DNA of 64,000 bases from the NCBI GenBank assembly GCA_951406725.2, contig OX597823.1, positions 84,754,001-84,818,000 on the forward strand. Direction: 5' to 3'. The number at the start of each line of letters is the position of its first letter. Within the stretch, counting starts at the first letter, position 1. This document shows positions 6,184 to 58,568 of the stretch, piece by piece. Origin of the DNA: Octopus vulgaris (Eukaryota). The notes below the pieces were generated by a model. The model saw nothing but the letters and a program-made list of their open reading frames with translations. It ran no database searches and was not told where the DNA came from. Position numbers and translations under genes: made by a program.

Positions 6184-6239
6184 TGTATAAAGACTAATGC
6201 CAAATCCATCTTCCGTTTCAATCATTCATTATTATTTTT

Positions 6240-6747
<508 letters not shown>

Positions 6748-6748
6748 C

Positions 6749-6962
6749 TTTTCTACTCTAGGCACAAGGCCGGAAATTTTGATGGAGAGGTCCAGTCGAT
6801 TAGATCGACCGCAGTACGCAACTTGTACTTAATTTATATCGACCCCGAAAGGATGAAAGGCAAAGTCGACCTCGGCAGAATTTGAACTCAAAACGCAAAG
6901 ACAGACGACATACTGCTAAGCATTTCGCCCGGCGTGCTAACGTTTCAGCCAGATCACCGCCT
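6749..6962 (-). mobile_element. SINE family C monomer
   Basis: Same head and GCCTTTCATCCTTTCGGGGTCGAT core, with tail GGCCTTGTGCCTAGAGTAGAAAAGA. Confidence 0.85.
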
Positions 6963-7133
6963 TTCATTTATCAATATTATTATCTCAACTAACATAGTGG
7001 TATTCCTGAAGTAGATCCGGCGGAAATATACTCCAACTGCGGATGACACCTGCTAGCCCAAACTGAGAAGGTGCTTTACCCAACATACTAAGTGAAATAT
7101 ATCCATCGGATCTCCAAAATTATATACATACAC

Positions 7134-10537: not shown

Positions 10538-10918
10538 AGTAAAGATTATTTGCCAACATAATGTAGCAATCCCGATCAGGACGAATGCCACTATTATTTA
10601 GCCCCAGGAAACAGCGTCTCCAGCTGGCTATACGACACACTATATGCGTCCTTTTTTCTTTTTTTGAACGAGGGAGTTTAGAGTTCCCACTCAGCACAAA
10701 GCAATATCTGCGTACCGCGATTTCTGTGTTATTTCCTGAAACCGCGGTATGCGGATATTCATTTAGAGATGAGTGGGGACTCTAAAATCCCTCGTTTAAA
10801 AAATATAAGGACACAGATAGTCGTATAACCAGCTGGAGACGATGTTTCCTGTGGCTAAATAATTGTGACATTCGTCCTGGCCGGGACTGACACATTATGT
10901 TGGCAAATAATCTTTACT
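10538..10918. mobile_element. Fold-back (MITE-like) element, imperfect palindrome with ~180-bp arms
   Basis: AGTAAAGATTATTTGCCAACATAATGT...GGAAACAGCGTCTCCAGCTGG is mirrored by CCAGCTGGAGACGATGTTTCC...ACATTATGTTGGCAAATAATCTTTACT, with a short central loop near 10725-10737. Confidence 0.8.
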
Positions 10919-15392: not shown

Positions 15393-15467
15393 GAGGAGCA
15401 TGGCTTGCTAGCTGGCTGCAGATACCTGTCTAGACCTTGTAAACATATATAATTTCAGTGAAGTAAC

Positions 15468-15800
15468 TTTGACGAACCGCTAATTTATTTTAACGACACG
15501 TTTGATGATCGTTATGTTATTTTATCGATCTCCTTTGGCGAACCGCTAGGTTATTTTATCGAAATCCTTTGGCGACCTACTAATTTATTTTATCGGATAG
15601 CTTTTGCAAATCACTAAGTTATTTTATGGAATCCCTTTGGCGAAGCGCTAAGTTATTTTATCCATCTCCTTTGGCGAACCGCTAATTTATTTTATCTATC
15701 ACGATTGACGAACCGGTAAGTTATTTTATAGATGTCGTTCGGCGAAGCGCTAAGTCATTTTATCGATCACGTTTGGCGGACCGCTAAGTTATTTTATCGA
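15468..15800. repeat. Minisatellite, ~34-bp unit x ~10, derived from SINE family B
   Basis: The unit CGCTAAGTTATTTTATCGATCTCCTTTGGCGAAC is a circular permutation of the SINE segment TATTCTATCGGTCTCTTTTGCCGAACCGCTAAGT (51961-51994). Confidence 0.85.
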
Positions 15801-18973: not shown

Positions 18974-19057
18974 GAGCGAAAGAGAGAGAGAAAGAAAGAG
19001 ATAAGATGAAAAGCACAGAAGATTTGTTTTACAGGATTTAAGAGAATATTAGAGCCA

Positions 19058-19472
19058 TTCTTTTATTCTTTTATTCTTAAATTTGTTTCAGTCATGTGAC
19101 TGTGGACATGCTGGAGCGCCACCTTTTAGTCGATCAAATCGACCCCAGGACATATTCCTTGTAAGCCTAGTACTTATTCTATCGGACTCTTTTTGCCAAA
19201 CCGCTAAGTTACGGGGACGTAAACGCACCAGCATCGGTTGTCAAGCGTATTTGGGGGCACAAACACAGGCACACAAAAACACATACACACACACATATAT
19301 ATACATATATACGGTAGAATTCTTCAGTTTCCGTCTACCAAATCCACTCACAAAGCTTTGGACGGTCCGAAGCTATAGTAGAAGACACTTGTCCAAGGTG
19401 CCACGCAGTTGGACTGAATCCGGAACCGTGTGGTTGGTAAACAAGCTACTTACCACACAGCCACTCCTGCGC
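19058..19472 (-). mobile_element. Full-length SINE family B
   Basis: Minus strand reads GCGCAGGAGTGGCTGTGTGGTAAG...GGATTCAGTCC..CTGCGTGGCACCTTGGACAAGTGTCTTC...GTAACTTAGCGG...CTCCAGCATG..CAGTC..ATGACTGAAAC, followed by an (AATAAAAG)n tail. Confidence 0.88.
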
Positions 19473-19517
19473 TTATTTTCTTTTTACCCAAAGCCAGGAA
19501 CTTTTCAGCACCCCTAC

Positions 19518-19757
19518 ATACCTATTTCTTTACTACCCACAAGGGGCTAAACGCAGAGGGGACAATCAAGGACAGACAGACGGATTAAGTCGATTACATC
19601 GACCCCAGTGCGTAACGGGTACTTAATTTATCGACCCCGAAAGGATGAAAGGCAAAGTCGATCTCGGCGGAATTTGAACTCAGAGCGTAACGGCAGACGA
19701 AATACGGCTACGCATTTCGCCCGGCGTGTTAACGTTTCTGCCACCTTTCCGCCACCT
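19518..19757 (-). mobile_element. SINE family C
   Basis: Family C core and tail, ending in the AAAGAAATAG|GTA junction. Confidence 0.8.
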
Positions 19758-22501: not shown

Positions 22502-23252
22502 CGACGACGTGGGTTCCAGTTGATCCGATCAACGGAACGGCCTGCTCGTGAAAGTAACGTGCATACGGCTGAGCATTCCACAGACGCCCTTAAAATAGTC
22601 CTCGGGAAGATTCAGTGTGACACAGAATGTGACAGGACTGGCCAATTTCTAATCGAGATGGGTGCAGGGGTGGCTGTGTGGTAAGAAGCTTGCTTCCCAA
22701 AGGCGATGAGCTGGCAGAAACGTTAGCACGCCGGGCGGAATGCTTAGCGGTATTTCGTCTGCCGTTACATTCTGAGTTCAAATTATGCCGAGGTCGACTT
22801 TGCCTTTCATCCTTTCGGGGTCGATTAAATAAGTAGCAGTTACGCATTGGAATCGATATAATCGACTTAATCCGTTTGTCTGTCCTTGTTTGTCCTCTCT
22901 GTGTTTAGCCCCTTGTGGGTAGTAAAGAAATAGGTATCTCGTCTGTCTTTACGTTGAGTTCAAATTTCGCCGAGGTCGACTTTGCCTTTTATCCTCTCGG
23001 GATCGATAAATTAAGTACCAGTTACGCACTGGAGGCGATGTAATCAACTTAACCTCTTTGTCTGTCTTTGTTTGTCCCCTCTATGTTTAGCCCCTTGTGG
23101 GCAATAAAGAAATAAGGAGCTTGCTTCCCAACCACATGGTTCCGGGTTCAGTACATCCGCGTGGTACCTTCGGCAAGTGTCTTCTACTATAACTTCTGGC
23201 CGACCAATGCCTTGCGAGTGGATTTGGTTGACAGAAACTGAAAGAAGCCCGT

Positions 23253-23309
<57 letters not shown>

Positions 23310-23368
23310 TGTGTGTCTCTTATTGTCCCCCCATCATTGCTTGACAACCGATACTGGTGTGTTTATGT
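22502..23368. mobile_element. Nested SINE cluster: family A 3' fragment (-), then family B (+) interrupted by a family C dimer (+, 22701-23117)
   Basis: The family C dimer is bounded by the 14-bp TSD AGCTTGCTTCCCAA (22687-22700 and 23118-23131), which lies inside the family B head. Confidence 0.88.
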
Positions 23369-28222: not shown

Positions 28223-28996
28223 CGATAAAAGATACTGCACGACATCAATGATTGCTAGAAATAAGAGCCAAGATTTCTTATTGGAACATTATGCTCACAT
28301 AACTTAGTAAAACCCCCATGAAAATAAGTCGTGAAAAGCACATGAGACGTACCGACCTTATGACTACAGGCTAAACTCCTCAAAGTCATTACTTTGCACG
28401 AGCTAACCTAAACTTAATAACATTAGCAGCAACAATAATAACAACAAGAGCAATAGTAATAAGAAACACAACAAAGCAAGAAAAGTATTCTTCTTTCTCT
28501 ATATTCTGCATTTTTTAGTGCGAAATAATTGATCCTGTTTCTATATATCGTAATGACAATTTTTTTTTGATAAAAATAAAAGCTGCAATTATTAATATTA
28601 TTTGTAATTGCGTTATTAGCTGCTGCAGTTTTATTCCTCCTATGAGTTCATCTGACGAGAAACAAAAGGAGAACTAAATATCTCTTCAGAGATAATAGTA
28701 AATCTGAAAAATATATCATTTGTTTCGTCATGGGTAGGGGGTTTATACAGTGACAATGGCTAGAGGAAACATTCTTGTGCTAATGAATGGTTGAATAGTC
28801 AATAATGAAAGATTTATAATAGAACGTAAAGAAAGACGTTTAGAGATTCCTTCCAATAGAACGGATCAATACAAGATATATCTGTGTACGAGTGTGTGTG
28901 TATTCATAACTATATATCTACATATATATATATGTGTGTGTGTGACTGTATGTGTGTGTGTGTATGTATGTATATATATATGTATATATATATATT

Positions 28997-29099
<103 letters not shown>

Positions 29100-29129
29100 A
29101 GTATATATATATATATATATATATATATG

Positions 29130-29550
29130 TAATTTATTATATAGAAGGAGCTTCTACAGGACTAGTACTGTTTCATTCAAGAGAAATCTTCAGGAAGCTA
29201 TTTAACAAGAATTGTATTAGCATTTATACATTTAGGCAGGTTTAAAGGAGTGGTGGTGGGGGACTTTTTTGGGGGTAGGCATAGCGCAAAATATCATACT
29301 TGGGGGAGTGGTCAAGGAGTCAGTGGTAAGTTAGATGAAAGAATAGATAAATAAAAAAATAAAAAAATAAAATAAAAAAATAAAAAAATTATAAAATAAT
29401 AAAAAAATAAAAAATAAAAAATATATATAAAAAATATATATATAAAAAAATATATATATATAAAAAAAGGGGGGATAGAGTTATAGGTAAATAAGGAGAT
29501 TCTCACTTATACCTATACACATATATATACGTATATACACACATATATAT

Positions 29551-29605
<55 letters not shown>

Positions 29606-29896
29606 CACACATACATACATATCTACATACACACATACATACACCCGCCCACATATACAAATTTATACACATGCACATGCATATACCTGTCTACACATAC
29701 ACACACGTATATATGCATACACTCACTCCCATGCATGCACGCATACACACATGTATATATATACCCACGACCACACATACATATATACACAGAAAAATAT
29801 ATATTCATACGCACATACACTCATGCACACACAACACACCTAGTTCCCTATATACACATATTTACACCTATATATACATACACCCACATACACATA

Positions 29897-29940
<44 letters not shown>

Positions 29941-30041
29941 CACGCATACATATATATACATGTGTGCACATACATACATATACACATATACATACACATA
30001 CACATACACATGTGTACCTATACATACCTACACATACACAC

Positions 30042-30092
<51 letters not shown>

Positions 30093-30484
30093 CCAATACA
30101 GGCCCATTCCCTAATTTTAATTTTATTATCTTCATTTATTACTTTTGTTATCTTTGATCGCTAGAGCTAAGGATCCTGGCTATGGCAGCATGTCCATTTG
30201 TCTGTCTACTAGAAGGCAAGTACTCATTCCCGCACGCACACTCATTAGCACGTACATTCACCCATTCGTACACTCATACACATACACGTACGCACGCGTT
30301 ATATTCATACATACAAACATCTACATACTTTCACGTATATACACATACGTACTCGTACCTACAGATTCGTGTCTACACTTTAGGAGGCTAGTCTATACAT
30401 ATACACCAATAAATATACATATATATATATATATACACATATACATACACATACACACATATACTCCTACATACAGATACATAC

Positions 30485-30517
<33 letters not shown>

Positions 30518-31241
30518 CATACACACACACACATATATATACACACACATACATACACATATATATACATACACAAACATATATACACACATATATATAT
30601 ATATATACACACATACACACACATACATACATATACACATACAAACACATACATACGTATACATACATACATACATCCATACATCCATACTTACATGCAT
30701 TTATACGCATACACACACCCATCTCTATATATATATATATATATATATACACACTCACACATACATATACAAATATACGCACACACATACATACATACAC
30801 GTATACACATACACGCACATACACATATACATGCGTACCCATACACGTGCACACACGCACGTGCATCCATATATATACACACACACACATATATACACGT
30901 GTGCAAGCATACATACATACTCATACACGCACACATACTTACATATACATATATGCACACACTTACACACATATATACATACACATATACATGCATACAT
31001 ACATATATGCATACATACACATACACGCACATACACATATACATGCGTACCCATACACGTGCACACACGCACGCGCATCCATATATATACACACACACAC
31101 ATATATACACGTGTGCAAGCATACATACATACTCATACACGCACACATACTTACATATACATATATGCACACACTTACAGACATATATACATACACATAT
31201 ACATGCATACATACATATATGCATACATACACACACGCGCA

Positions 31242-31287
<46 letters not shown>

Positions 31288-31458
31288 TACATACATACAC
31301 ATACATATACATACACATATACATATACATACACATACACATACATACATATATATACACATATATACACATATACACATACATATATACACATATACAT
31401 ACATATACATACACACACACATACATATATACTTATACACTGATACACATACCCATAC

Positions 31459-31489
<31 letters not shown>

Positions 31490-31609
31490 TATACACATGC
31501 ATATACTTATATCTCTACATACTCACATATAAACATATATATATATACACACATATATATATACATGTACATAAACATACATATATATATATATATACAT
31601 ATATATACC

Positions 31610-31643
<34 letters not shown>

Positions 31644-32284
31644 TACATATACACATATACATGTATACATACGCAATAATGATACACATATATACACATA
31701 CACACACATAGACAGATGCATATACATACATATATATATAAATTACATATCTATATAAATACATACATAATACACATATACACACACATATATATACATG
31801 CATATACATATACAAATATACATACACATACATACACACACACGCGCACACATACATATACACACACACATATATACAAATACATACATACACACATACA
31901 CACACACACATATATACATACATGTACACATATACATATATATATATCAACAAGGGAGGGTAAAGTTAATTAGTTATAAATCAATTTCACCAAGTATTCA
32001 GTATGTAAAGGGACCATTATTATTTTGAGTAAACAATGTTAGAGGAAAAAAATTCTCTAAGTAGTGGAAGAGGCTAAAAAACTTTATTGGCTGCTATTTC
32101 TAGAAAGTTTAGTATGTGGCAAAGTAATTTATTTTATTTTACTAAGCCCTAATTATATAATATTTTATACATACATACACATACATAAACACATACATTT
32201 ACACATACATATGCATATACGTATATACACATATACATACAGACACATATACATATATACACACACACACACATATACACAAGC

Positions 32285-32316
<32 letters not shown>

Positions 32317-32378
32317 GCAAATATATATACATATATATATTTTTACATGCATACATACACACACACACACATAATACA
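29130..32378 (-). repeat. Left arm of ~3.25 kb inverted repeat (inverted copy of the Penelope-like element's 3' region, 33887-37135)
   Basis: Unique islands match in reverse complement, giving identical N-terminal ORF translations at 30145+/36132-, 32064+/34197- and 29506-/36759+. The arms differ by microsatellite lengths and a few substitutions. Confidence 0.95.
29149..29199 (-). ncRNA. Hammerhead ribozyme (inverted copy)
   Basis: Exact reverse complement of 37066-37116. Confidence 0.8.
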
Positions 32379-32837
32379 AGGGATTCATTTGGTTTGTGGT
32401 ACGGGTAATAAAGTGAGGTTTTTAAGTCGAGGGTGACATCGAGGAAGTTAGCCTTTGTTAAGTTGGATTCTAGGGTAATCCTAAGGCCTAAGTTTTTAAA
32501 GAAGGTGTGAAGATTTTTCCGGAACCCATCCGTGGTCCTGGGGTTTATATTGTGGAGGGCGAAAAGGCCGTCATCTCGGTAAAGACCACCGGAGAGGCTG
32601 AAAACCCTATTCACAGGCCTCTCCGGTGGTCTTTACCGAGATGACGGCCTTTTCGCCCTCCACAATATAAACCCCAGGACCACGGATGGGTTCCGGAAAA
32701 ATCTTCACACCTTCTTTAAAAACTTAGGCCTTAGGATTACCCTAGAATCCAACTTAACAAAGGCTAACTTCCTCGATGTCACCCTCGACTTAAAAACCTC
32801 ACTTTATTACCCGTACCACAAACCAAATGAATCCCTT
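32378..32837. repeat. 221-bp perfect inverted repeat with 18-nt loop at the 5' break of the retroelement
   Basis: 32378-32598 is the reverse complement of 32617-32837. Both arms encode LSGGLYRDDGLFAL...YYPYHKPNESL. Confidence 0.93.
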
Positions 32838-33711
32838 AGATATATAGATATCAATTCCAACCACCCCAAAAATATATTAGATAACCTAGTAAAAAGTGTC
32901 TCAATTAGAATCTCTAGCCTGTCCGCCACGGAAGATATCTTTAAGGCCGCAGCCCCCTATTACAACGAGGCCCTGGCCCGCAGTGGTTTTAAAGATAAGA
33001 TTACCTACACTAGTATAGCCCCACGCCAACCCAGGAAAAATAGACGAAGACACATTAGCTGGTACAACCCCCCTTCAACCGTGAGGTCGCTACACCTGTA
33101 GCTAAGATCTTTTTCACTCTCCTACAGAAACACTTCCCCACCCAACATAAGTACTACACTATCCTAAATAAGAACACTATTAGACTCTCCTACTCTACGA
33201 CGCCCAATCTAGCCAGGAACCTAGCCAACAACAATGTGAAAAAACTTAACATATCTACTTTCTCCGGGGCCCATCCAACGTCCGATAGCAGTTGCAACTG
33301 CCATGATAAAACCACCTGCCCCCTCAACAACAACTGCCTACAGAGGGACCTAGTATATAAATGCGAGGTAAGATCAGGCCTTGACGATAAAAGTAAATCC
33401 TACATTGGAATGACGTCAAACAGCTTTAAGACCCGCTGGTACGCACACACACACTCGTTCCGGCGACAGGATAAATCCAACCAAACTACCCTCGCCGCCC
33501 ACATCTGGTACCTTAAAAGGAACTCAATCCCCTTCAAGACCAAGTGGAAACTACTACAGAAGGCGCGCTCGTACACAGGAGGACATACCTGCTGTGACCT
33601 ATGCATATCAGAGAGCCTCTCCTTAACAAATTTTCAGAACACTCCCCAAATTGCATGCATAAGAAGTATGCGAACTACAGGAACTATAGACCTACCCGGC
33701 AACCTGATTGA
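32617..33711 (+). pseudogene. 5'-truncated Penelope-like (Naiad-like) ORF: RT C-terminus/thumb plus GIY-YIG endonuclease, with two frameshifts
   Basis: GLYRDD RT catalytic motif, NFLDVTLDL, SNHP, WYNP(P/F)..KHFP, CNC-x5-CPL-x3-C, LVYKC...YIGMT...FKTRW..H, CCDLCISE, then LNKFSE..CMHKK..TGA in a shifted frame. There is a -1 frameshift in the C run at ~33068-33073 and an apparent small deletion near 33620. Confidence 0.9.
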
Positions 33712-34618
33712 TGACAACCCCCCTACAACCCCCCTACAACCCCCCCCCAACCCCACTGTTCCCCTAGCACCCCCGATTACCTTTTCTCCTAAGACCTTTC
33801 ACATATTGTATGTGCACGCTTGTATATGTGTATCGTATGTATGTATATATGTATAGAAATGCATGGGTACAGTAGGAATATACGCATGTATTATGTGTGT
33901 GTGTGTGTATGTATGCATGTAAAAATATATATATGTATATATATTTGCATATATATATATATATATATATATGTATGTGCTTGTATATGTGTGTGTGTGT
34001 GTATATATGTATATGTGTCTGTATGTATATGTGTATATACGTATATGCATATGTATGTGTAAATGTATGTGTTTATGTATGTGTATGTATGTATAAAATA
34101 TTATATAATTAGGGCTTAGTAAAATAAAATAAATTACTTTGCCACATACTAAACTTTCTAGAAATAGCAGCCAATAAAGTTTTTTAGCCTCTTCCACTAC
34201 TTAGAGAATTTTTTTCCCTCTAACATTGTTTACTCAAAATAATAATGGTCCCTTTACATACTGAATACTTGGTGAAATTGATTTATAACTAATTAACTTT
34301 ACCCTCCCTTGTTGATATATATATATGTATATGTGTACATGTATGTATATATGTGTGTGTGTGTATGTGTGTATGTATGTATTTGTATATATGTGTGTGT
34401 GTATATGTATGTGTGCGCGTGTGTGTGTATGTATGTGTATGTATATTTGTATATGTATATGCATGTATATATATGTGTGTGTATATGTGTATTATGTATG
34501 TATTTATATAGATATGTAATTTATATATATATGTATGTATATGCATCTGTCTATGTGTGTGTATGTGTATATATGTGTATCATTATTGCGTATGTATACA
34601 TGTATATGTGTATATGTA

Positions 34619-34654
<36 letters not shown>

Positions 34655-34774
34655 GGTATATATATGTATATATATATATATATGTATGTTTATGTACATG
34701 TATATATATATGTGTGTATATATATATATGTTTATATGTGAGTATGTAGAGATATAAGTATATGCATGTGTATA

Positions 34775-34805
<31 letters not shown>

Positions 34806-34978
34806 GTATGGGTATGTGTATCAGTGTATAAGTATATATGTATGTGTGTGTGTATGTATATGTATGTATATGTGTATATATGTATGTGTATATGTGTATA
34901 TATGTGTATATATATATGTATGTATGTGTATGTGTATGTATATGTATATGTGTGTGTATATGTATGTGTATGTATGTA

Positions 34979-35030
<52 letters not shown>

Positions 35031-35756
35031 TGCGCGTGTGTGTATGTATGCATATATGTATGTATGCATGTATATATGTATGTATATATGTGTGTAAGTG
35101 TGTGCATATATGTATATGTAAGTATGTGTGTGTGTATGAGTATGTATGTATGCTTGCACACGTGTATATATGTGTGTGTGTGTATATATATGGATGCGCG
35201 TGCGTGTGTGCACGTGTATGGGTACGCATGTATATGTGTATGTGCGTGTATGTGTATGTATGCATATATGTATGTATGCATGTATATGTGTATGTATATA
35301 TATGTGTGTAAGTGTGTGCATATATGTATATGTAAGTATGTGTGCGTGTATGAGTATGTATGTATGCTTGCACACGTGTATATATGTGTGTGTGTGTATA
35401 TATATGGATGCACGTGCGTGTGTGCACGTGTATGGGTACGCATGTATATGTGTATGTGCGTGTATGTGTATACGTGTATGTATGTATGTGTGTGCGTATA
35501 TTTGTATATGTATGTGTGAGTGTGTATATATATATATATATATATATAGAGAGATGGGTGTGTGTATGCGTATAAATGCATGTAAGTATGGATGTATGGA
35601 TGTATGTATGTATGTATACGTATGTATGTGTTTGTGTGTATATGTATGTATGTGTGTGTATGTGTGTATATATATATATATATGTGTGTATATATGTTTG
35701 TGTATGTATATATATGTGTATGTATGTGTGTGTATATATATGTGTGTGTGTGTATG

Positions 35757-35793
<37 letters not shown>

Positions 35794-36184
35794 TATGTAT
35801 CTGTATGTAGGAGTATATGTGTGTATGTGTATGTATATGTGTATATATATATATATATGTATATTTATTGGTGTATATGTATAGACTAGCCTCCTAAAGT
35901 GTAGACACGAATCTGTAGGTACGAGTACGTATGTGTATATACGTGAAAGTATGTAGATGTTTGTATGTATGAATATAACGCGTGCGTACGTGTATGTGTA
36001 TGAGTGTACGAATGGGTGAATGTACGTGCTAATGAGTGTGCGTGCGGGAATGAGTACTTGCCTTCTAGTAGACAGACAAATGGACATGCTGCCATAGCCA
36101 GGATCCTTAGCTCTAGCGATCAAAGATAACAAAAGTAATAAATGAAGATAATAAAATTAAAATTAGGGAATGGGCCTGTATTGG

Positions 36185-36231
<47 letters not shown>

Positions 36232-36330
36232 GTGTATGTGTAGGTATGTATAGGTACACATGTGTATGTGTATGTGTATGTATATGTGTATATGTATGTA
36301 TGTGCACACATGTATATATATGTATGCGTG

Positions 36331-36370
<40 letters not shown>

Positions 36371-36661
36371 TATGTGTATGTGGGTGTATGTATATATAGG
36401 TGTAAATATGTGTATATAGGGAACTAGGTGTGTTGTGTGTGCATGAGTGTATGTGCGTATGAATATATATTTTTCTGTGTATATATGTATGTGTGGTCGT
36501 GGGTATATATATACATGTGTGTATGCGTGCATGCATGGGAGTGAGTGTATGCATATATACGTGTGTGTATGTGTAGACAGGTATATGCATGTGCATGTGT
36601 ATAAATTTGTATATGTGGGCGGGTGTATGTATGTGTGTATGTAGATATGTATGTATATGTT

Positions 36662-36714
<53 letters not shown>

Positions 36715-37065
36715 ATATATATGTGTGTAGATACGTATATATATGTGTATAGGTATAAGTGAGAATCTCCTTATTTACCTATAACTCTATCCCCCCTTTT
36801 TTTATATATATATATTTTTTTATATATATATTTTTTATATATATTTTTTATTTTTTATTTTTTTATTATTTTATAATTTTTTTATTTTTTTATTTTATTT
36901 TTTTATTTTTTTATTTATCTATTCTTTCATCTAACTTACCACTGACTCCTTGACCACTCCCCCAAGTATGATATTTTGCGCTATGCCTACCCCCAAAAAA
37001 GTCCCCCACCACCACTCCTTTAAACCTGCCTAAATGTATAAATGCTAATACAATTCTTGTTAAAT

Positions 37066-37116
37066 AGCTTCCTGAAGATTTCTCTTGAATGAAACAGTAC
37101 TAGTCCTGTAGAAGCT
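37066..37116 (+). ncRNA. Type I hammerhead ribozyme in the element terminus
   Basis: AGCUUC-CUGAAGA-UUUCUCUUGAAU-GAAA-CAG-UACUAGUC-CUG-UA-GAAGCU. Helix I is 6 bp, the CUGANGA/GAAA core is intact, helix II is UUC/GAA, helix III is ACAG/CUGU, and the cleavage triplet is GUA (cut after 37110). Confidence 0.85.
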
Positions 37117-37199
37117 CCTTCTATATAATAAATTAATTTTACTCTGCTATGTATTGAGTACCTTACTTACTGTGGTTAACCCCGAATCAACCCGGGACC

Positions 37200-37252
<53 letters not shown>

Positions 37253-37282
37253 GTATATATATTTATGTATATATAAATATAT

Positions 37283-37721
37283 CCTTTTATTCTTTTGTTT
37301 CAGTCATTTGAATGAGGCCATGCTGGAGCACCGCCTTCAGGCGAACAAATCAACCCCAGGACTTACTTTTTGTAAGCCTAGTACTTATTCAATCGGTGTC
37401 TTTTGTCGAACTGCTAGATTACGGAGACGTAAAAACGCTAACATGGGTTGTCAAGAAATGGCGTAGGGAAGAAGCACACGCGGAGTAAATAAAACAGGGG
37501 ACAACTGATGAAGGGAATGTTCTTTATGTTGCATGTCTTGTTTCTTTGTTTGTTTATTTCGTTGTACAAAAGAAGTTCGTTTTCTATGTTTTCGCTTTTT
37601 ATGTTCTTGTTTCTCATTCTGTGTACGTTTCTTTGATGTCCTATATGTGTATGTATATATACATATATATGTAGGTATGTACATATATGTATGTATATAC
37701 GCATATATTTATATATTATTC

Positions 37722-38690: not shown

Positions 38691-38876
38691 GGTCTATCTC
38701 TAAGATTGCTTAATGTCGAGGTATTCCGTTACTAATTTTCCTGTATTTTATTGATAGTTGCTGTGATGGTTAATTGTTACTGTGAAGACTCAATTCCACC
38801 TCAGCAACCACCAAACAAATAAAACACAAGAAATACAGCTCCGTAACACACCGTTCCTTCTAGAGAAATGCCTTAA

Positions 38877-39732
38877 AAGGCGGCAAGCTGGTAGAAACAT
38901 TAGCACGCCAGACAAAATGTTTAGTGTTGTTTCATCTGTCTACGTTCTGAGTTCAAATTCCGCCGAAGTCGATTTTACCTTTCATCCTTTCGCGGTCGAT
39001 AAATTGGGTACCAGTTGTGTACTGGGGTTGATCTAATCGACTGGCCTCCCCACCCTAGAAATGATGTGTCGTGTGTCTAGTGTAGAAGAGAATATCTAAG
39101 GAGTGAAAAGCGGTGAGCTGGTAGAAACGTTAGCACGCCGGGCGAAATGCCTAGCAGTATTTCGTCTGCCGCTACGTTCTGAGTTCAAATTCCGCCGAGG
39201 TCGACTTTGCCTTTCATCCTTTCGGGGTCGATTAAATAAGTACTAGTTACCCACTAGGGTCGATGTAATCGACTTAATCCGTTTGTCCGTCCTTGTTTGT
39301 CCCCTCTGTGTTTAGCCCCTTGTGGGTAGTAAAGAAATAGGTATTTCGTCTATCTTTACGTTCTCGGTTCAAATTCAGCCGAGGTCGACTTTGCCTTTCA
39401 TCCTTTCGGGGTTGATAAATTAAGTACAAGTTGTGTACTGGGGTTGTTCTAATTGACTGGCCCCCTCCCCGCAAAATTCGGGTCTTGTGCCTAGAGTAGA
39501 AAAGAATATATAAAGAGTGAAAGGCAGCGACTTGGCAGAAACGTTAGCACGCCGGGCGAAATGCTTAGCAGTGCTTCGTCTGTCTACGTTCTGAGTTCAA
39601 ATTCCGCCGAGGTTGATTTTGCCTTTCATTCTTTCAGGGTCGATAAATTAAGTGGCAGTTGCGTACTGGGATCGATCTAATCGACTGGTCCCCTCCCCAA
39701 AAATTCGGGCCTTGTGTGTAGAGTAGAAAAGA
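38877..39732 (+). mobile_element. Tandem cluster of SINE family C (monomer, dimer, monomer)
   Basis: Heads at ~38878, ~39109 and ~39521. AAGAATAT.TAA.GAGTGAAA flanks the central dimer as a probable TSD. Confidence 0.85.
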
Positions 39733-41725
39733 AATTCCTTAAGTATCTCGGAGCAGTAATTGGAAGAATCTTAGCATTCTGGCAAATTTTAAGTAACATT
39801 TCCCAGAAAGTTAAAGAGGAAGTTACTGGACAGGAACTTAGCCGAACATGAGAAAAAAAAAAGAAAAAGAAAACGAAAAATGAGACCGAAGATCACCGGG
39901 GTGTTTTCCATTTGTCTTCGATATCTTTATCATTTTGTTGTTTCAGTCGACAGACTGTGGCCATGCTGGAGCACAGCCTTAAAGAAATTTTAGTTGAATG
40001 AATCGAACCCAGGATCTATTCTCATCTCTTTAAGGCTGGTACTTACTCTATCAGTCTTGTATGCTAGAGCGCTAGATGTAAAAACCCTAACACCGGTTGT
40101 CAAGCGGAGATGAAGACAAACACACACACACATGCATACACACACACACAGACACACACATACACATACACACAAAATGGGCTGCATTCTAAAAAATCTA
40201 CTCGCGTGGCTTTGGTCGGCTCGAGGTTGTACCAGAAGACACACGCCCAAAGAGCCATCCAATGGGGCTGAACCCAAAGCTATGAGGTTGGGAAGCAAAC
40301 ATCTTACCACACAACCACAACAGCACCAATACATGTTTGGATGAAACCAATCAATAATCTATATTATATCTATTTATATATATTGCGATTGTAGGGACCA
40401 TGTACTAAGAACATCCCTACTATACACATGCTGTTGCATTACTGAATATTGGGCACGAATAACGGGGCGTAGCATTCATACAAATAAATTCGAATTCTAA
40501 GTAAATAATTATGGGTTATATCCGATGCAAAAAATTTATTTTTTAATGATAAAATGTAAACATAAGTGCAGGCGTGGGTGTGTGATAAGAAATTTGCGTG
40601 CTAACCACATGACTCCGAGTTCAGTCTCACTCCACGATACCTTAGGAAAGTGTCTTTTAATATATCCTCAGGCCGACCAAAGCCTTTGAGTAGATTTGGG
40701 AGACGAGAAATTTGATAGAAGCCCATCGTGTATGTATGTATGTATGTATGTATGTATGTATGTATGTATGTATGTATGTATGTATGTATGTATGTATGTA
40801 TGTATGTATGTATGTATATATGTATGTATGTATGCATGTATGTATGTATGTATATACATATACATACATGCATACATACATACATACATATATACGTATA
40901 TATATGGAGGCGCAATGGTCCAAACATGTATTGGTGCTGTTGTGGTTGTGTGGTAAGATGTTTGCTTCCCAACCTCATAGCTTTGGGTTCAGCCCCATTG
41001 GATGGCTCTTTGGGCGTGTGTCTTCTGGTACAACCTCGTGCCGACCAAAGCCACGCGAGTAGATTTTTTAGAATGCAGCCCATTTTGTGTGTATGTGTAT
41101 GTGTGTGTGTGTGTGTATGCATGTGTGTGTGTGTGTGTGTGTGTGTTTGTCTTCATCTCCGCTTGACAACCGGTGTTAGGGTTTTTACATCTAGCGCTCT
41201 AGCATACAAGACTGATAGAGTAAGTACCAGCCTTAAAGAGATGAGAATAAATCCTGGGTTCGATTCATTCAACTAAAATTTCTTTAAGGCTGTGCTCCAG
41301 CATGGCCACAGTCTGTTGACTGAAACAACAAAACGATAAAGATATCGAAGACAAATGGAAAACACCCCGGTGATCTTCGGTCTCATTTTTCGTTTTCTTT
41401 TTCTTTTTTTTTTCTCATGTTCGGCTAAGTTCCTGTCCAGTAACTTCCTCTTTAACTTTCTGGGAAATGTTACTTAAAATTTGCCAGAATGCTAAGATTC
41501 TTCCAATTACTGCTCCGAGATACTTAAGGAATTTCTTTTCTACTCTACACACAAGGCCCGAATTTTTGGGGAGGGGACCAGTCGATTAGATCGATCCCAG
41601 TACGCAACTGCCACTTAATTTATCGACCCTGAAAGGATGAAAGGCAAAATCAACCTCGGCGGAATTTGAACTCAGAACGTAGACAGACGAAGCACTGCTA
41701 AGCATTTCGCCCGGCGTGCTAACGT
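39541..41725. repeat. ~800-bp inverted duplication (39541-40341 / 40919-41725) with ~577-bp spacer
   Basis: The reverse-complement match spans SINE C, unique DNA and SINE B, with only a handful of substitutions. Confidence 0.95.
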
Positions 41726-41993: not shown

Positions 41994-43069
41994 ACATACA
42001 CACACACACACGCATACACACACACACATACATATATATACACATATGTGTGTGTGTCTTTGATTCCCACTATCGCACGACAATCGGTGTTGGTGGTTAT
42101 TTCGCTGTAACTTAGCGGTTCGACAAAAATAAAAAATAGAAGAAATACCAGACTTCAGAAATACAAAAAGACAGTACCGGGACCGATTCTTTCGACTAAA
42201 ATTCTTCAAGGGGGTGCTGCAGCATGGCCGCAGTCTAATGACTGAAACGAGCAAAAGATAAATGATTTGCTCTGATTACCAATAATGAGAGTGATTGCTC
42301 TGTTCTCACCTTCACAGAGGACACCACACAAAAGGAACACCATCATGCGCGCAAATCAAATATTATTATTCACATGATTGAATCAAATTGTCGCTGGTTA
42401 TATGTTTTCAACAGGACAATCATTGATTGAGAATATCTCTGAAAGCGAGAGCGACACGAAAGCGTCTGCGACTCGGGACTTCGTTCGAAGATCACCGGCG
42501 TGTGCTATATCCGTATCCGATATCCAGATTGTTGAATGAAATCAATTAATATTCTATAGAGGTTATGTATATTGTGCGTTTTGTCTGCTTCAATAAAACT
42601 ACTTTCCAATAATTATCGTATCATAGAAATAGTGAACAAAAGCATGCGGTGAATCCTTTAAATATTGCCATGAAAGGTCAATAACTTATTTAAATAGCAT
42701 AATGGCTTTGAAAGTAGGGAGTCTTCTGCCCAGTGATGTACGCACAACATTTTTCAACTATTAAAATTTCCTCTTTCTTTGCTGTTGCAGAAAGTAAACA
42801 AACTCAAAACTCAAATAGAAAAAGAACTAGCGAAAATTCTTTGAGACTCTTAAAGGTAAGGCGTGATAATTCTTATAAATGATGAATATAATGCTTTAAA
42901 AATATGTACCTTGCTGACAAGGTCTCATAAGTCGGAAACGTCTACAGCTGTAACCTGTAAAGGAGTCAATCGAGGTACGAAACGTGTTTATTTTCATTCT
43001 GTTAATGTCACTTAACAAAGGCAGTTAAATTACTGATATCAATTGCAACTATTTTCTATGAATCTATTA

Positions 43070-43463
43070 CTTTATTGCCCACAGGGGGCTAAACATAGAC
43101 GGGACAAACAAGGAAAAAGGGATTAAGTCAATCGCATCGGCCCCAGTGCGTAACTGATACTTATTTTATCGACCCCGAAAGGATGAAAGGTAAAGTCGAC
43201 CTCGGCGGAATTTGAACTGAGAATGTAACAGCGGATGAAATACCTATTTCTTTACTACCCACAAGGGGCTAAACACAGAGGGGACAAACGGATTAAGTCG
43301 ATTATATCGACCCCAGTACGTAACTGGTACTTATTTAATGGACCCCAAACGGATGAAAGGCAAAGTCGACCTCGGCGGAATTTGAACACAGAACGTAACG
43401 GCAGACGAAATACGGCTACGCATTTCGCCCGGCGTGCTACCGGTTCTGCAAGCTCGCCGCCTT
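43070..43463 (-). mobile_element. SINE family C dimer
   Basis: A headed unit joined to a headless unit at AAAGAAATAG|GTATTTC. Confidence 0.85.
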
Positions 43464-44539
43464 CATATTTTCTATGTATCATTGCATGGAAAAATAACAA
43501 TGTGACAATGATAGTGTGAGGCGTTACTATAGACACCGAACTTGTATGATAGAGGACATTTATGATTATATATATAAGGTGGAAAGCTGGCGGAATCGTT
43601 AGCACGACGGACAAAACGCATACTAGCATTTCGTCAGTTTTTAATTTCTGAGTTCAAAACACGTCGGTGGGTGGGTTCGACTTTGATAAGCCCCAGTTGA
43701 ATGCCGGTGTCGATGTAACCGAATTATTCCAATTTCCAACCCAAACACCACCAGCACAATACACACACAAACAAGAAATTGCTGGCCTTGTACCAAAATT
43801 TGAAACCATTATGACTACGTAATGCCAAAATAATGACCATTTTTAGCTAGACGTTAAAAATCACGCATGTAATCAGCATTTTAATGCTGAATAGGATATC
43901 ATTTAGATTTTTTTTTTATTTAGTATTTAGCGTTGAGAAATTTTGCGTGGGAAGGCACTGCATTCCTCATTTACTGACGAACATATATATATATATATAT
44001 ATATATATACATTGTTAACACGTTCATATATATATTTACAAGCACATGCATATACAAAATCTCACATACACAAACGTGTATTCATATACAAATTCTCGCA
44101 CATTTACACACACATGTTATAAATATATACTGGTACATGCATTTATACATTTGTCGTATACAATGTGTTTGTGGGCCTCACTGCCGAAACATCAATATCT
44201 ATGTATGTATGTATGTGCGTATGTACGTACATACGTATGTATGTATGCGTGTGTATGTATCTATTTATGTATGTATATGTGTGTATGTGCGTATGTGCGT
44301 GTATATGTATATGTGTATTTCTATGTATGCATACATATACACACAAGCGTACATATGTACTTGCACGTACATACATAGTTCTATACATAAGCACGTATAT
44401 TCGTACTATATGTAAAATGTAGTTCTGCGTGTATGCAAGTATATATGTATGTGTGTTTGTTTGTTTGTCTGTCTGTCTGTATATATGTATATATATATAT
44501 CAATATATGCATAAATATATCTATTTACACATATAAGTG

Positions 44540-48743: not shown

Positions 48744-49145
48744 TATATTTCGAAAATAAGCCTTAATTTATGTTATCTAAATTAAAACTGTTTTGCAATA
48801 AAATGGCCATTTAAACATTTGATGTTACTGATCATTTTGTTCCTTTTGCTTCAAAAGGTGAAACAGTACGATTTGTTTAATAGATAAACGAGAGATTATC
48901 TATCATGTTTGATCTTTATAAATTCAATCAATCTTTGTACTGAGGACATTTTGAATTAATCCTCTTTTACAAGCTGCTGATTCGTGTGTTGTCTCTCATC
49001 GGATAAATATTTATGTTGTTGTTTACATCTCAAAGACTGCGACGTTTTGGACGGTATTAGAAATATGAAATGATAAAATAATGTTCCATTCAGTGGTTTG
49101 TTCCGAGGATATTGGAGAAATAACCTTAAAAATAAGACCATATAA

Positions 49146-50128
49146 TTTTTTCTACTCTAGGCACAAGGCTCAACATGTTTTTGTGGGGGAGTCAATTAGA
49201 TCAACCTTAGTAAGCAACTGGTACTTAATTTATCGACCACATCGGCGGAATTTGAACTCAGAACGTAAAGACAGACGAAATACCTATTTCTTTACTATTC
49301 ACAACGGGCTAGACACAGAGGTGACAAACAAAGACAGACGAACGGATTAAGTCGATTACATCGACCTCAGTGCGTAACTGGTACTCATTTACTTGACCCC
49401 GAAAAGATGAAAGGCAAAGTCGACGTCGGCGAAATTTGAACTCAGAACGTAGCGGCAGACGAAATACCTATTTCTTTACTACCCACAAGGGGCTAAACAC
49501 AGAGAGGACAAACAAGACAGACAAACGGATTAAGTCGATTATATCGACCCCAGAGCGTAACTGGTACTTAATTTATCGACCCCGAAAGGATGAAAGGCAA
49601 AGTCGACCTCGGCGGAATTTGAACTCAGAACGTAACGGCAGACGAAATACGGCTACGCATTTCGCCCGGTGTGCTAACGATTCTGCCTGCTCCCCGCCTT
49701 GTTAAAGTAAAAATATTCCTTTCTTCACTAGGAACAAGGTTCGAAATTCTATACTAGGAACAATGTTCGGGGTACGGTAGATTAGATCGACCCCAGTACG
49801 TAGCTCGTACGTAATTTATCGACCCCGGAAGGATAACAGACGAAGTCAGCCTCGGCGGAATTATAACTCAGAACGTAAAGACAGAAGAAATACCCATTTC
49901 TTTACTACCCACAACGGGCTAAACACAGAGGGGACAAACAAGGACAGACAAACACATTACGTCGATTATATCGACCCCAGTGCAAAACTAGCACTTATTT
50001 AATCGACCCCGAAAGGATGAAAGGCAAAGTCAACCTCGGCGGAATTTGAACTCAGAACGTAACGGCAGACGAAATACGGCTACGCATTTCGCCCGGTGTG
50101 CTAACGTTTCTGCCAGCTCGCTGCCTTA
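49146..50128 (-). mobile_element. SINE family C trimer (49146-49700) and dimer (~49745-50128)
   Basis: Repeated ~183-bp headless units joined at AAAGAAATAG|GTATTTCG. Confidence 0.87.
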
Positions 50129-50284
50129 AAATGACAATATTATAACTAATGCATTATTATCCGCTTCTAATTTTGATATAATAATAACTTATAATGACGA
50201 ACAGACTTCAAAAGTTAATAGCAGGATGAATTTCCTAGAACGATACATGATAAATATTGATTTATGGTATTCTTTTTAATTTTT

Positions 50285-50637
50285 TTTTATTTGTTTCAGT
50301 TATTTGACTGCGGCCATGCTTGAGCACCGGCTTTAGTCGAACAAGTCAATCCCAAGACTTATTCTTTGTAAGCATAGTACTAATTCCATTGGTCTCTTTT
50401 GCGTAACCACTAAGTTACGCGGTCGTAATCACACCAGCATAGGTTGTCAAGCGAGGGTGGAGTGGGGTGCAAACACAGACACAAACACAGACATATATAT
50501 TCGACTGGATTCTTTCAGTTTCTGTCTACCGAATCGACTCACAAGGCTTTGGCCGGCCCGAGCCTATAGTAGGGGACACTTGCCCAAGCTGCCTTGCAGT
50601 GGGACTGAACCCAGAACCATATGGTTGGTAAGCCACT
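50285..50637 (-). mobile_element. SINE family B
   Basis: Collinear with 19058-19472. Confidence 0.8.
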
Positions 50638-55365: not shown

Positions 55366-55677
55366 TATGCGGGTGTGTGTGTGTGTGAGCGTGTACCCAT
55401 GTGTGTCTATATTTATGTTGGTGTTTGTCCACCACCCCGGCTTAACAACTGGTGAAGATTTTTTTTATGTATCATTAACTTAGCGGTTTGGCAAAAGATA
55501 CCGATAGAATAAGTACCGGGCTTAGAAATATCGATCTGTTTAATTAAACCCTTCAAAACTGTGCCCCAGCCTGGCCGCATTATAATAACTAAAATCTGTA
55601 AAAGACAAAATATATGTAATAGCTAATAATTATATACAAATATTATACATAGCTTTTATTATTTCTATGTTGCTCTA

Positions 55678-55908
55678 AGGAGGTGAGCTAGCAGAGTGTT
55701 GAGCACGCCGGTCAAAGTGCTTGGCGGTATTTCGTCTACAGCTACGTTGTGAGTTCTAATTCCACAGGGGCGAAATTTGCCTTTCATCCTACGGGGTCGA
55801 TAAATTAAGTACCATTAATGTAATCGTCTAGTCCCCTCACCCAATATTTCAGGCCTTGTGCCTTAGTAGAAAGGATTATCATCATCATCATCATTATTAT
55901 TATTATTA

Positions 55909-55975
<67 letters not shown>

Positions 55976-56950
55976 CATTATTATTATTAATATGAGGCGG
56001 CGAGCTGGCAGAATCTTTACCACGCTGGGTAAAATGCTTTGCGACATTTCTTCTGTCTTTACGTCCTGAGTTCAAATTCCGCCGCGGCCGACTTTGCCTT
56101 TCATTCTTTCGGGGTCGACAAAAATAAGTACCCTCCGAAATTGCTGCCCTTATGGCAAAATTTGAAACCATTATTATTATTGAGTGTGAGAACTGTGCAA
56201 GCCATCAAAGGGAGACTGGGGTAAAATACACGAAGCCCAGTATATCCATCATGACTGCCCGTCTAGGTACACTAGACACATGTATCACAACTATATGTGC
56301 TCGAAACGGTGATCCCATATCAAGATAAACAGCGCATGACCTCGCAGGTGAGGCTTAGAATTTTCTTCCCGCTCAAAAGGTCCCTGAATAAGGGCTGTTT
56401 GAGAATTTTACCCCTCGGTTCCAAAAGCGTATTATCCAAACCTCAAAGAAGTCCTCTCAGCACATGGATATGATGCTCCCCCACTACTTCTACTCGTGAT
56501 CAGTGATGCACATATTGTCAGCCACCAAGAGACATGCTCAACTGGTTAAGGTCAAACAACTGACAAGCAAAATGTGATATCGAGAAGCATATTTGCTGTA
56601 GCCCATCTTTTATACCAAGGTAAAACAATGTATATGATAACACTTCCGATCAGTTAAGATCAACATCCATGAAAGCCACTGCTTGGTGCTGCATCAGGGC
56701 ATTTTATTATTATTATTATTATTCCGCTAAGAAGGCGGCGAGCTGACAAATTCATCAGCACGCTAGACAAAGTGCTGAGTGGTATTTCGTCCGTCTTTGC
56801 GTTCTGAGTTCAAATTCCACTGCACACATCTTGCCTTTCATCCTTTCGAGGTCGATAAAATAAGTACCAGTTGTGTACTTGGCTTAATCTAATCAACTTA
56901 ACTCTCTACTTCAAAATTGCTGGCCGTGTGCCAAATGTTGAAACCATTAT
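55678..56950 (+). mobile_element. Three family C SINEs separated by (TAT)n tracts and an unclassified ~520-bp insert (56182-56701)
   Basis: Heads AGG.GG.GAGCT at ~55678, ~55995 and ~56733. Confidence 0.7.
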
Positions 56951-57167
56951 TTCTATGATCGTCTAAAAAGACAGTATATCTACGACATTTCACCTATGTA
57001 CATGCACAGACTATTTAGAACTACATTAACCTTGGTGTTCCAACTTTTATTCAGCTGTTAGAATATAACTTGAGGGTGATATCACCCATGGCCTTCATGC
57101 ATTTTCCCGTGTGTTGGGTCCCTTCACATTAGAAAAAGTGGATAGATAGACATTTTATTTTTATTAG

Positions 57168-57783
57168 TCCGGGCGTGGCTGTGTAGTAAGAAGTTTAGTT
57201 TCCAGCCACATGGTTCTAGGTTCAATCTCCCTGCGCTGCACCTTAGGCAAATATCCTCTACTATTGCCTTGGGTTGACCAAAGTCTTGTGAATAGATTTC
57301 GTAGAAGGAAGCTGAAAGAAGCCCATCGTATAGATGTGTATATGTATATATTTGTGTACTTGTGTTTGTCCCCCACCTCAATATCGCTTGCCAACGAATG
57401 TTGGTGTGTTTACGTCCCTGTGACTTAGCGGTTCGGCAAGGCGACTGATAGAATAAGTACTAGGCTAAGGCAGCGAGCTGGTAGAAACGTTTGTACGCCG
57501 GGCGACATGATTAGCCGTATTTCGTCTGTCTTTACGTTCTAAGTTCAAGTTCCGCCGAGGTCAACTTTGCCTTTCATCCTTTCGGGGCCTATAAGTTAAG
57601 CACTAGTTTCGTACTAGAGTCGATCTATTCAACTGGCCCTCACCTCCCCCAAAATTTCGGGCCTTGTGCCTAGAGTAGAAAAGAATAAGTATTAAGCTTA
57701 CAAAGAATAAGTCCTGAGGTTGATTTGTTCGACTAAAACCCCCTAATGGGCGTTATCAAATGAGTGAATCAAATAAAAGAATA
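57168..57783 (+). mobile_element. SINE family B with nested family C (57467-57681)
   Basis: ~17-bp TSD AGAATAAGTACTAGGCT / AGAATAAGTATTAAGCT. Confidence 0.85.
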
Positions 57784-58568
57784 TGATGTAATTTGAAATA
57801 GACTTGGTTACTATTTCCAGCAGAACAAATGAACTCTTACAGGCTCTCTTAATGACTTACATCAGCGGTTTAGTGGTTGCTGCTGCTGTTAAATTCTAAG
57901 TCAGCTCAATCGAACCGACGTGCGATCTAACATGATATAACGTGGGCCAGCTCTAGCCATCTCATATATGTTTTCCTATCTGAAAAGAACCCACGACCAC
58001 TTTATCCAACGTTTCAAAATGGTCGAGTGCAAAGAGAGGGAGAAATATGGCGGTTGCTGTTACTACCAGGTCAAATGACCTGTTCGGAGCTCTCTCATTG
58101 GTCCATTTCATTTAATGCTTAACATAACGGTGTTTGTTTCTCTTTATAATACCACCAACAATAAGATAAGCTGCCAAATCATTTAACACCGAACAAATTG
58201 TTATTATTACGTTTTCTCATTTATTATATCTATTATATTGTATTATATCTTATTTTTTCTTAGGCACAATAAATTCTTCAGCTGGGGTCATAGATTGACC
58301 TTCTTTATAGTTTAATGCCATAGTTTAATCCCTTATTTGTTTTGTTCCTTTGTTTCTTTTTCTATGGTGTTTATTATGTTTGTTTGTTACAATCCGTTGT
58401 TACTGCGGTTTTTATTTGTTTGCTTTTCTTGTTTTCATATTTATAAATTCCATTGTCGGGTAATTAATTTTATATTTCTTTCTGGAATTTCTTTCCTCGC
58501 ATATTAGCACTCATATACTCATATGTACGTATTTATATAAATATGAATATAAATATGAATATAAATAA

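Follow-up and report, generated by a model that had tools for sequence, protein, structure and literature searches.

Here we describe an 8-kb nested palindrome at positions 29130 to 37200 of a 64,000-nt stretch of the Octopus vulgaris genome (assembly GCA_951406725.2, contig OX597823.1, positions 84,754,001 to 84,818,000; the whole stretch is hereafter called the window). The structure probably represents a 5'-truncated and broken Penelope-like element (PLE) with Hydra-clade motifs that lies in a (TA)n tract, head to head with a second, inverted copy of its 3' region, and that arose by one recent integration primed at two ends.

A self-comparison of the window by BLAST, as suggested in a first-pass annotation of this DNA, recovered both inverted pairs, the strongest non-self match being the outer and the third strongest the inner pair. 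By global alignment, the outer arms comprise 3,249 nt each, i.e. 33887-37135 on the forward strand and the reverse complement of 29130-32378, with 3,223 matches, 8 substitutions and 13 gaps. The inner arms (32617-32837 and the reverse complement of 32378-32598, from the motif C region of the reverse transcriptase, RT) are identical at 221/221 positions and enclose a loop of 18 nt on the forward strand (32599-32616, junction J2). Within the left arm, element position 32837 is connected to 33887 with one T common to both (junction J1, at 32378). The right copy continues for 65 nt past the end of the mirror (37136-37200) before it enters (TA)n; this segment is present once within the window and is likely the PLE 'tail', which would lie between two reverse-transcription start sites. 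The order given in the first-pass annotation (inverted 3' region, inverted inner arm, loop, direct copy), its skip of 32838-33886 at a 1-nt overlap, the missing last 65 bp or so of the inverted copy and the setting in (TA)n, with tracts at 28963-29129 (identified with Tandem Repeats Finder, TRF) and 37201-37280, were all borne out exactly. Outside these tracts the flanks have just three short matches in common (71-174 nt, 72-77% identity), and the mirror therefore ends where the element ends.

Microsatellite-like tracts account for 65.5% of the arm and contain all eight of its substitutions. The 874 nt of complex arm sequence and the inner arm, 1,095 nt together, contain no substitution, giving an upper 95% bound on divergence of about 0.27%. 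The microsatellites belong to a 3.4-kb non-coding spacer (33712-37065, forward strand) which consists mainly of TA/TG-type repeats with few complex blocks, as seen from the sequence and TRF. It contains an internal tandem duplication of 212-214 bp (2.4 copies, 91-92% matches), which is found in both arms (35031-35539 and 30735-31242) and is therefore older than the insertion; four of the eight substitutions lie in or border it. Self-BLAST found no direct repeats such as would form a pseudo-long terminal repeat (pLTR) within the PLE copy, as expected after 5' truncation.

The identity of the element is given by the remnant of one open reading frame (ORF) in the direct copy, which begins just before the RT motif YRDD, ends at a stop codon at 33709-33711 and is spread over three frames. 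Its first part (32599-33068, forward strand) covers YRDD, the downstream palm and the thumb up to a frame break in a run of C at around 33067, as judged by homology and by contigs of the family. The second part (33059-33711, forward strand) holds a linker with the motif CxCx5C (around 33293-33319) as well as the remnant of a C-terminal GIY-YIG endonuclease, with CxxC-E and N-CxH motifs, from which about 22 nt are gone at around 33617. The two main pieces match a single database protein of 352 aa in order, with 42% (RT) and 40% identity. For further comparison we used the best 150 of 5,905 relatives at E 0.001, and a long subset of 14 proteins of at least 590 aa that are approximately 35-41% identical; YRDD is present in the copy and in all 14 long relatives.

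Structure and cluster comparisons point in the same direction. The model of the RT piece (pLDDT, i.e. predicted local distance difference test, 91) had reverse transcriptases as its top Foldseek rows, albeit weakly (E 0.07), and the endonuclease piece matched GIY-YIG clusters of the ESM Atlas with scores of 0.94-0.95, where PF01541 was found on 28-50% of the named clusters' members; 8 of the 43 members of its alignment also matched PF01541. The top structural matches of the endonuclease model (pLDDT 84) were I-TevI (Z 5.5, root-mean-square deviation 2.3, 70 residues aligned), T4 EndoII and Hpy188I, with UvrC in sixth place, all of them GIY-YIG nucleases, as is in part apparent from their entry titles. 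Neither model had a Foldseek match at E 0.001, a Pfam search of six long relatives and the 352-aa relative gave nothing relevant, and PDB sequence searches with one protein and one alignment query gave nothing significant. A Pfam row for VtrA_C on the window's own pieces lay under its cut-off and was dismissed as a chance match. Taken together, homology, the Pfam matches of relatives and the structures confirm the RT/GIY-YIG remnant proposed earlier, and the succession of RT and C-terminal GIY-YIG in one ORF, seen in motifs, Atlas clusters and structure matches, upholds a Penelope-like origin.

The Hydra clade of PLEs has been defined by a CxCx5C linker, absence of CCHH, CxxC before the conserved E, CxH after the conserved N, and (TA)n targets (PMC8557442). 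In the present copy, CxCx5C occupies residues 79-87 of the translation of 33059-33616, CCHH is absent from the endonuclease, with a single Cys between the two tyrosine motifs, CDLC precedes E185, and N and CMH follow in the downstream frame. Among the 150 relatives, CxCx5C was found in 106, CxxC..E in 120 and E..N..CxH in 108. These markers, together with the (TA)n target, point to the Hydra clade. The CX2-5CxxC linker and CCHH of Neptune/Nematis are absent from the copy, and this linker was seen in 12/150 relatives; the Naiad/Chlamys clades, which have an N-terminal endonuclease and lack a canonical hammerhead, do not agree with the C-terminal position of the endonuclease and the presence of a hammerhead here. 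The N-terminal DKT/RWK region is lost from the copy (among the 14 longest relatives, DKT was found in 11, DKG in one and RWK in three). With 4.6 kb in spite of its 5' truncation, the direct copy (32599-37200) exceeds the size of Hydra elements, generally under 3 kb, although this is stated as a general trait and not as a diagnostic one (PMC8557442).

The family to which this copy belongs is multi-copy. Of the 24 sequencing runs listed, 20, from eight studies, contained 50% or more of the words sampled from 32340-34320; no RNA run was among the 24, which thus have no bearing on expression. Contigs of four of these runs, from four studies, were compared with 32599-33945, i.e. up to the beginning of the spacer; one of the four, X1, may be the source sample. 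Many near-identical contigs were found in all four runs, several of them identical to the window. Compared with them, the frame of this copy is broken at around 33067, where its run of C is one nucleotide short (all four runs), while the gap of about 22 nt at around 33617 is marked by loose ends in runs X2, X9 and X14. In run X2, a contig of 633 nt covers 32599-32741 and reaches 490 nt further upstream; therefore, the copy is 5'-truncated at this point and the J2 loop is native element sequence. Only two substitutions in about 1.1 kb, at 33199 and 33680, are private to this copy. Given these two private substitutions and the near-identical arms, the insertion is likely to be young. Long young Penelope copies are known to occur in such genomes, since 329 recently active Penelope insertions have been counted in O. 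vulgaris, covering 1.8 Mb at about 5.5 kb each (PMC13282606). Of note, contigs in X1 and X9 diverge from the window for 133 nt after 32992; this divergence, and another after 33854-33869, likely reflects subfamilies or copies with other spacers.

An artefact, i.e. a fold-back read or misassembly mirroring one real copy, has to be weighed against a real locus. Such an origin would agree with the complete absence of substitutions in the complex arm sequence and the restriction of all eight to error-prone microsatellites (chance 0.034 if evenly spread), and no junction-spanning contig was found in the four runs compared. Divergence between the arms, which might have been taken as proof against an artefact, was dropped as an argument for the same reason. 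However, a mirrored read should carry flanking sequence and have one junction, whereas here the mirror halts at a plausible end of the element, 25 nt beyond the predicted cut of the hammerhead and with differing flanks, and there is a second junction with a skip of 1,049 nt as well as a one-sided tail. The layout furthermore agrees with published PLE insertions. We therefore regard an artefact as unlikely, indeed as highly improbable.

How, then, did the two copies come to lie head to head? From the established geometry, domains and breaks, and from the multi-copy family, we infer the following steps. After cleavage of both (TA)n strands by the element protein, each target end would have primed one cDNA, the two starting at 37200 and 37135 and thus offset by 65 nt. 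Having reached 32599, the right cDNA would have folded back on a short imperfect hairpin, copied 221 nt of itself (32617-32837) and then switched, with 1 nt of overlap, to the left cDNA, whose end lay at 33887. With a switch between two cDNAs, the apparent skip is a joint and no deletion is needed. The end of the antisense cDNA near 32599 can form a 4-bp stem, as the loop holds a self-complementary pair (32599-32602 with 32610-32613), or a bulged 7-bp stem if three more bases are native, with predicted energies of -3.9 to -4.7 kcal/mol; such a hairpin would account for both the 221-nt inner arm and the offset of the loop. Evidence in this direction also comes from the anole, whose PLE protein cleaves AT-rich DNA on both strands, extends both, and begins reverse transcription at two adjacent start sites that bound an optional tail (PMC11167929), in agreement with the ends at 37200 and 37135. 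At 29120-29131 and 37199-37210, both element ends read the same outward, TA followed by CATATA, as if a short palindrome within (TA)n had been the empty site, a TA being either duplicated or shared; this would fit a symmetric target. The geometry, the J2 hairpin and the PLE literature thus support the earlier proposal of fold-back or template switching at integration.

Alternatively, a single cDNA self-primed at 32599 might have copied the whole element, the left arm later losing 32838-33886 (1,049 nt) by a microhomology deletion that relieved a perfect palindrome of 4.5 kb. Self-priming is a proposed origin of head-to-head palindromes in PLEs, whose copies commonly show microhomology deletions (PMC3846280); the near-identical arms are as expected from one template, and the ORF has another deletion at around 33617. 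Nevertheless, this scenario does not account for a left end at 37135, whereas the one-sided tail maps to two RT start sites, and the deletion would have spared the most unstable part, the perfect 221-bp hairpin. A further indication comes from a loose end of 25 nt in run X1, in which inverted spacer sequence (36145-36169) meets the ORF at 32675 over 2 shared nt. It hints weakly at a further head-to-head copy with the spacer, joined in the same manner at other coordinates, asymmetrically and with no inner hairpin. We therefore consider self-priming followed by deletion less likely, although it is the most serious competitor of priming at two ends.

Several observations nonetheless weigh against an integration of a Hydra-type PLE primed at two ends. 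With regard to identity, the fold match of the RT is weak, Pfam gave neither an RT nor a GIY-YIG match on the window's own three pieces, and the clade was called from motifs rather than from a tree. With regard to the family, neither J1 nor J2 was seen in the contigs of the four runs, in which the microsatellite at J1 was skipped and single-copy variants are dropped; the X1 loose end, among the 24 of 133 loose ends listed, is a single contig with that side shorter than 31 letters. Moreover, contigs in X2, X9 and X14 diverge from the window after 33854-33869 and run X9 has no depth at 33724-33813, so that the spacer may vary between copies and may not be family-wide. With regard to the mechanism, 37135 and 37200 are known as ends from this copy alone, and the tail measures 65 nt as compared with 30-40 nt in the literature. 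Finally, the close 5' ends (32599 and 32617) demand a fold-back in any model; since it is needed anyway, a single fold-back plus deletion explains J1 equally well. Among the titles searched, with subscription literature outside the search, no paper was found that states a model of two primers plus a hairpin for PLEs.

The position of a hammerhead ribozyme at the distal end of each strand had been noted before, and a type I hammerhead descriptor gave exactly two matches in the 64 kb, at 37066-37116 on the forward strand (predicted cut after 37110) and at its exact reverse complement, 29149-29199 on the reverse strand (predicted cut at 29155), as opposed to none in 100 locally shuffled windows. 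The predicted motif has a 6-bp stem I, a 3-bp stem II and a palindromic helix III, and by eye its pattern resembles the Hydra hammerhead table in File S2 of PMC8557442. It lies 89 and 154 nt from the two element ends, and in 23 of the 24 families listed there (not counting Penelope-18_HMa and the antisense entry of Penelope-13_HM) this distance is 87-210 nt. Rfam searches of the window at the gathering score, and of 36900-37300 at E up to 10, returned only TA-repeat noise, the folding energy is ordinary (z 0.34 and -0.17), and ATGs near the hammerhead open short frames only. In contrast to the earlier opinion, the symmetry of the two ribozymes is nothing unusual: the second is a passive copy, present because the 3' end was inverted. 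A pair on both strands is also listed for the Hydra element Penelope-13_HM (PMC8557442) and for Schistosoma PLEs, and opposite-strand pairs 100-700 bp apart have been noted (PMC4209133).

It was further proposed that read-through transcripts would form 3.2 kb of double-stranded RNA (dsRNA) with 3' ends set by self-cleavage. Self-cleavage is the weakest part of that interpretation. The computed fold of the monomer amounts to -7.3 kcal/mol (2.4% of the ensemble) and a helix III dimer to -15.2 kcal/mol, as compared with -92.9 kcal/mol for the duplex of the hammerhead with its antisense copy; in RNA transcribed across both arms, the antisense copy precedes the hammerhead, which would therefore probably be trapped. 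In addition, metazoan PLE hammerheads were found inactive as monomers and weak as dimers (PMC4209133), and that of the anole PLE required protein and showed no RNA ends at its cut site (PMC11167929). Ends set in this way are thus unlikely.

Whether the locus is a retained silencing device, feeding small interfering RNA (siRNA), piRNA or ADAR pathways against its own family, is a separate matter. Arms that are 99% identical and an intact hammerhead core would suit such a role, and in Drosophila siRNAs have been assigned to the inverted parts of Penelope copies that had undergone rearrangement (PMC3681739). However, those siRNAs silenced the element inefficiently (PMC3681739), about two thirds of the long stem are TA/TG microsatellite, the insertion looks too young for selection to show, and the hammerhead competes with its antisense duplex as described above. 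Of the ORF, the double-stranded part would cover just 221 bp. A literature search by title on cephalopod ADAR yielded nothing specific. Overall, the siRNA idea is plausible, though already published for Drosophila Penelope, and the long duplex that any read-through RNA would form may incidentally serve RNAi or ADAR, yet selection for this is without support and a retained silencing function appears very improbable. The palindrome is likely a by-product of PLE insertion rather than a purpose-built silencing device.

In comparison with known elements, the locus represents another family of a known clade in an already described arrangement. A typical PLE carries an inverted 5'-truncated copy beside its 5' end and a tail of 30-40 bp at one end (PMC8557442), and head-to-head copies with palindromes at the junction are the most frequent form (PMC3846280); that PLEs often leave inverted terminal segments and carry hammerheads, as stated in the first-pass annotation, agrees with PMC8557442 and PMC4209133. 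The Hydra clade (Craig et al. 2021, PMC8557442) shares the C-terminal GIY-YIG, the linker and endonuclease motifs, (TA)n and a 3' hammerhead, and its member Penelope-13_HM also shares a 5'-truncated inverted copy (966 nt) and hammerheads on both strands. In contrast to these elements, generally below 3 kb, the present copy has 3,358 nt between stop codon and hammerhead alone, and its arms are 3.25 kb long and nested. Of the unusual features named before, the symmetric ribozymes are therefore published, while the nested 3.25-kb arms do stand out by their larger scale. The listed hammerhead of Hydra-1_Obim from Octopus bimaculoides, an element also listed as 'no pLTR', differs from the present one, which indicates another family (PMC8557442).

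Outside the clade, Pen1 and Pen2a of Adineta vaga share the head-to-head inverted copy, the junction palindrome, the one-sided tail and microhomology deletions, but belong to another clade and have repeats of about 200 bp and shorter spacers: that of Pen1, before the 3' pLTR, consists of 0.9-1.5 kb of captured host DNA as compared with 3.4 kb here, and target-site duplications are 8-10 bp in Adineta vaga Penelope as compared with at most a TA (PMC3846280). The anole element, Poseidon PAc of Anolis carolinensis, is where cutting and extension of two strands and two RT starts are known, and it shares an AT-rich target and an upstream hammerhead, but belongs to the Penelope/Poseidon clade and has a tail of 30-40 nt (PMC11167929). 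Rearranged Drosophila Penelope copies with long inverted repeats resemble the locus with regard to the dsRNA/siRNA idea, although small RNAs were observed there and the present locus is known from DNA alone (PMC3681739, PMC3136932). The accessible part of a 2026 retrozyme preprint contained nothing on a head-to-head layout. Less ordinary are the 3.4-kb microsatellite-rich spacer, the 65-nt tail and junctions that fit priming at two ends plus hairpin self-priming.

Since the layout is textbook for PLEs, the locus changes little. Its value is that of a clean young fossil of a single integration, with its three pieces joined together, a tail on one side only and a symmetric target, considering that the formation of tandem and inverted PLE structures has been named an open question (PMC8557442). 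Being of high copy number, the family would offer many junctions by which two-ended priming can be weighed against fold-back plus deletion, and if the 3.4-kb spacer is family-wide, the element would be a vehicle spreading simple repeats. One may go further and speculate, tentatively and against the odds, that a young high-copy Hydra family with a 3.4-kb microsatellite cargo routinely integrates by two-ended (TA)n priming, hairpin self-priming and template switching. If so, each event would leave kilobases of new TA/TG repeat, i.e. new target, and often a multi-kb palindrome, and the family would amplify host microsatellites and provide a natural junction library resolving how inverted PLE structures form.

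The window contains further repeats. A second large inverted repeat (39541-40341 and 40919-41725) has arms of 801 and 807 nt separated by a spacer of 577 nt, with 792 matches, 9 substitutions and 1 gap, and predates the PLE palindrome. It is made up, as a mosaic, of complex sequence and of short repeats that are common in the window; no ORF and no hammerhead were found in it, and it is possibly an inverted duplication or a foldback-type element. Many short dispersed repeat copies of 75-92% identity, several in tandem or nested, occur at 6238-6985, 19057-19753, 22699-23368, 38876-39733, 43064-43467, 49140-50633 and 55677-57784; we presume them to be SINE/MITE-like (short interspersed nuclear element/miniature inverted-repeat transposable element). 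In addition, TRF identified a minisatellite with a 34-bp unit and about 10 copies at 15467-15800, and a MITE-like imperfect palindrome of 380 nt with 81.5% identity is located at 10538-10918.

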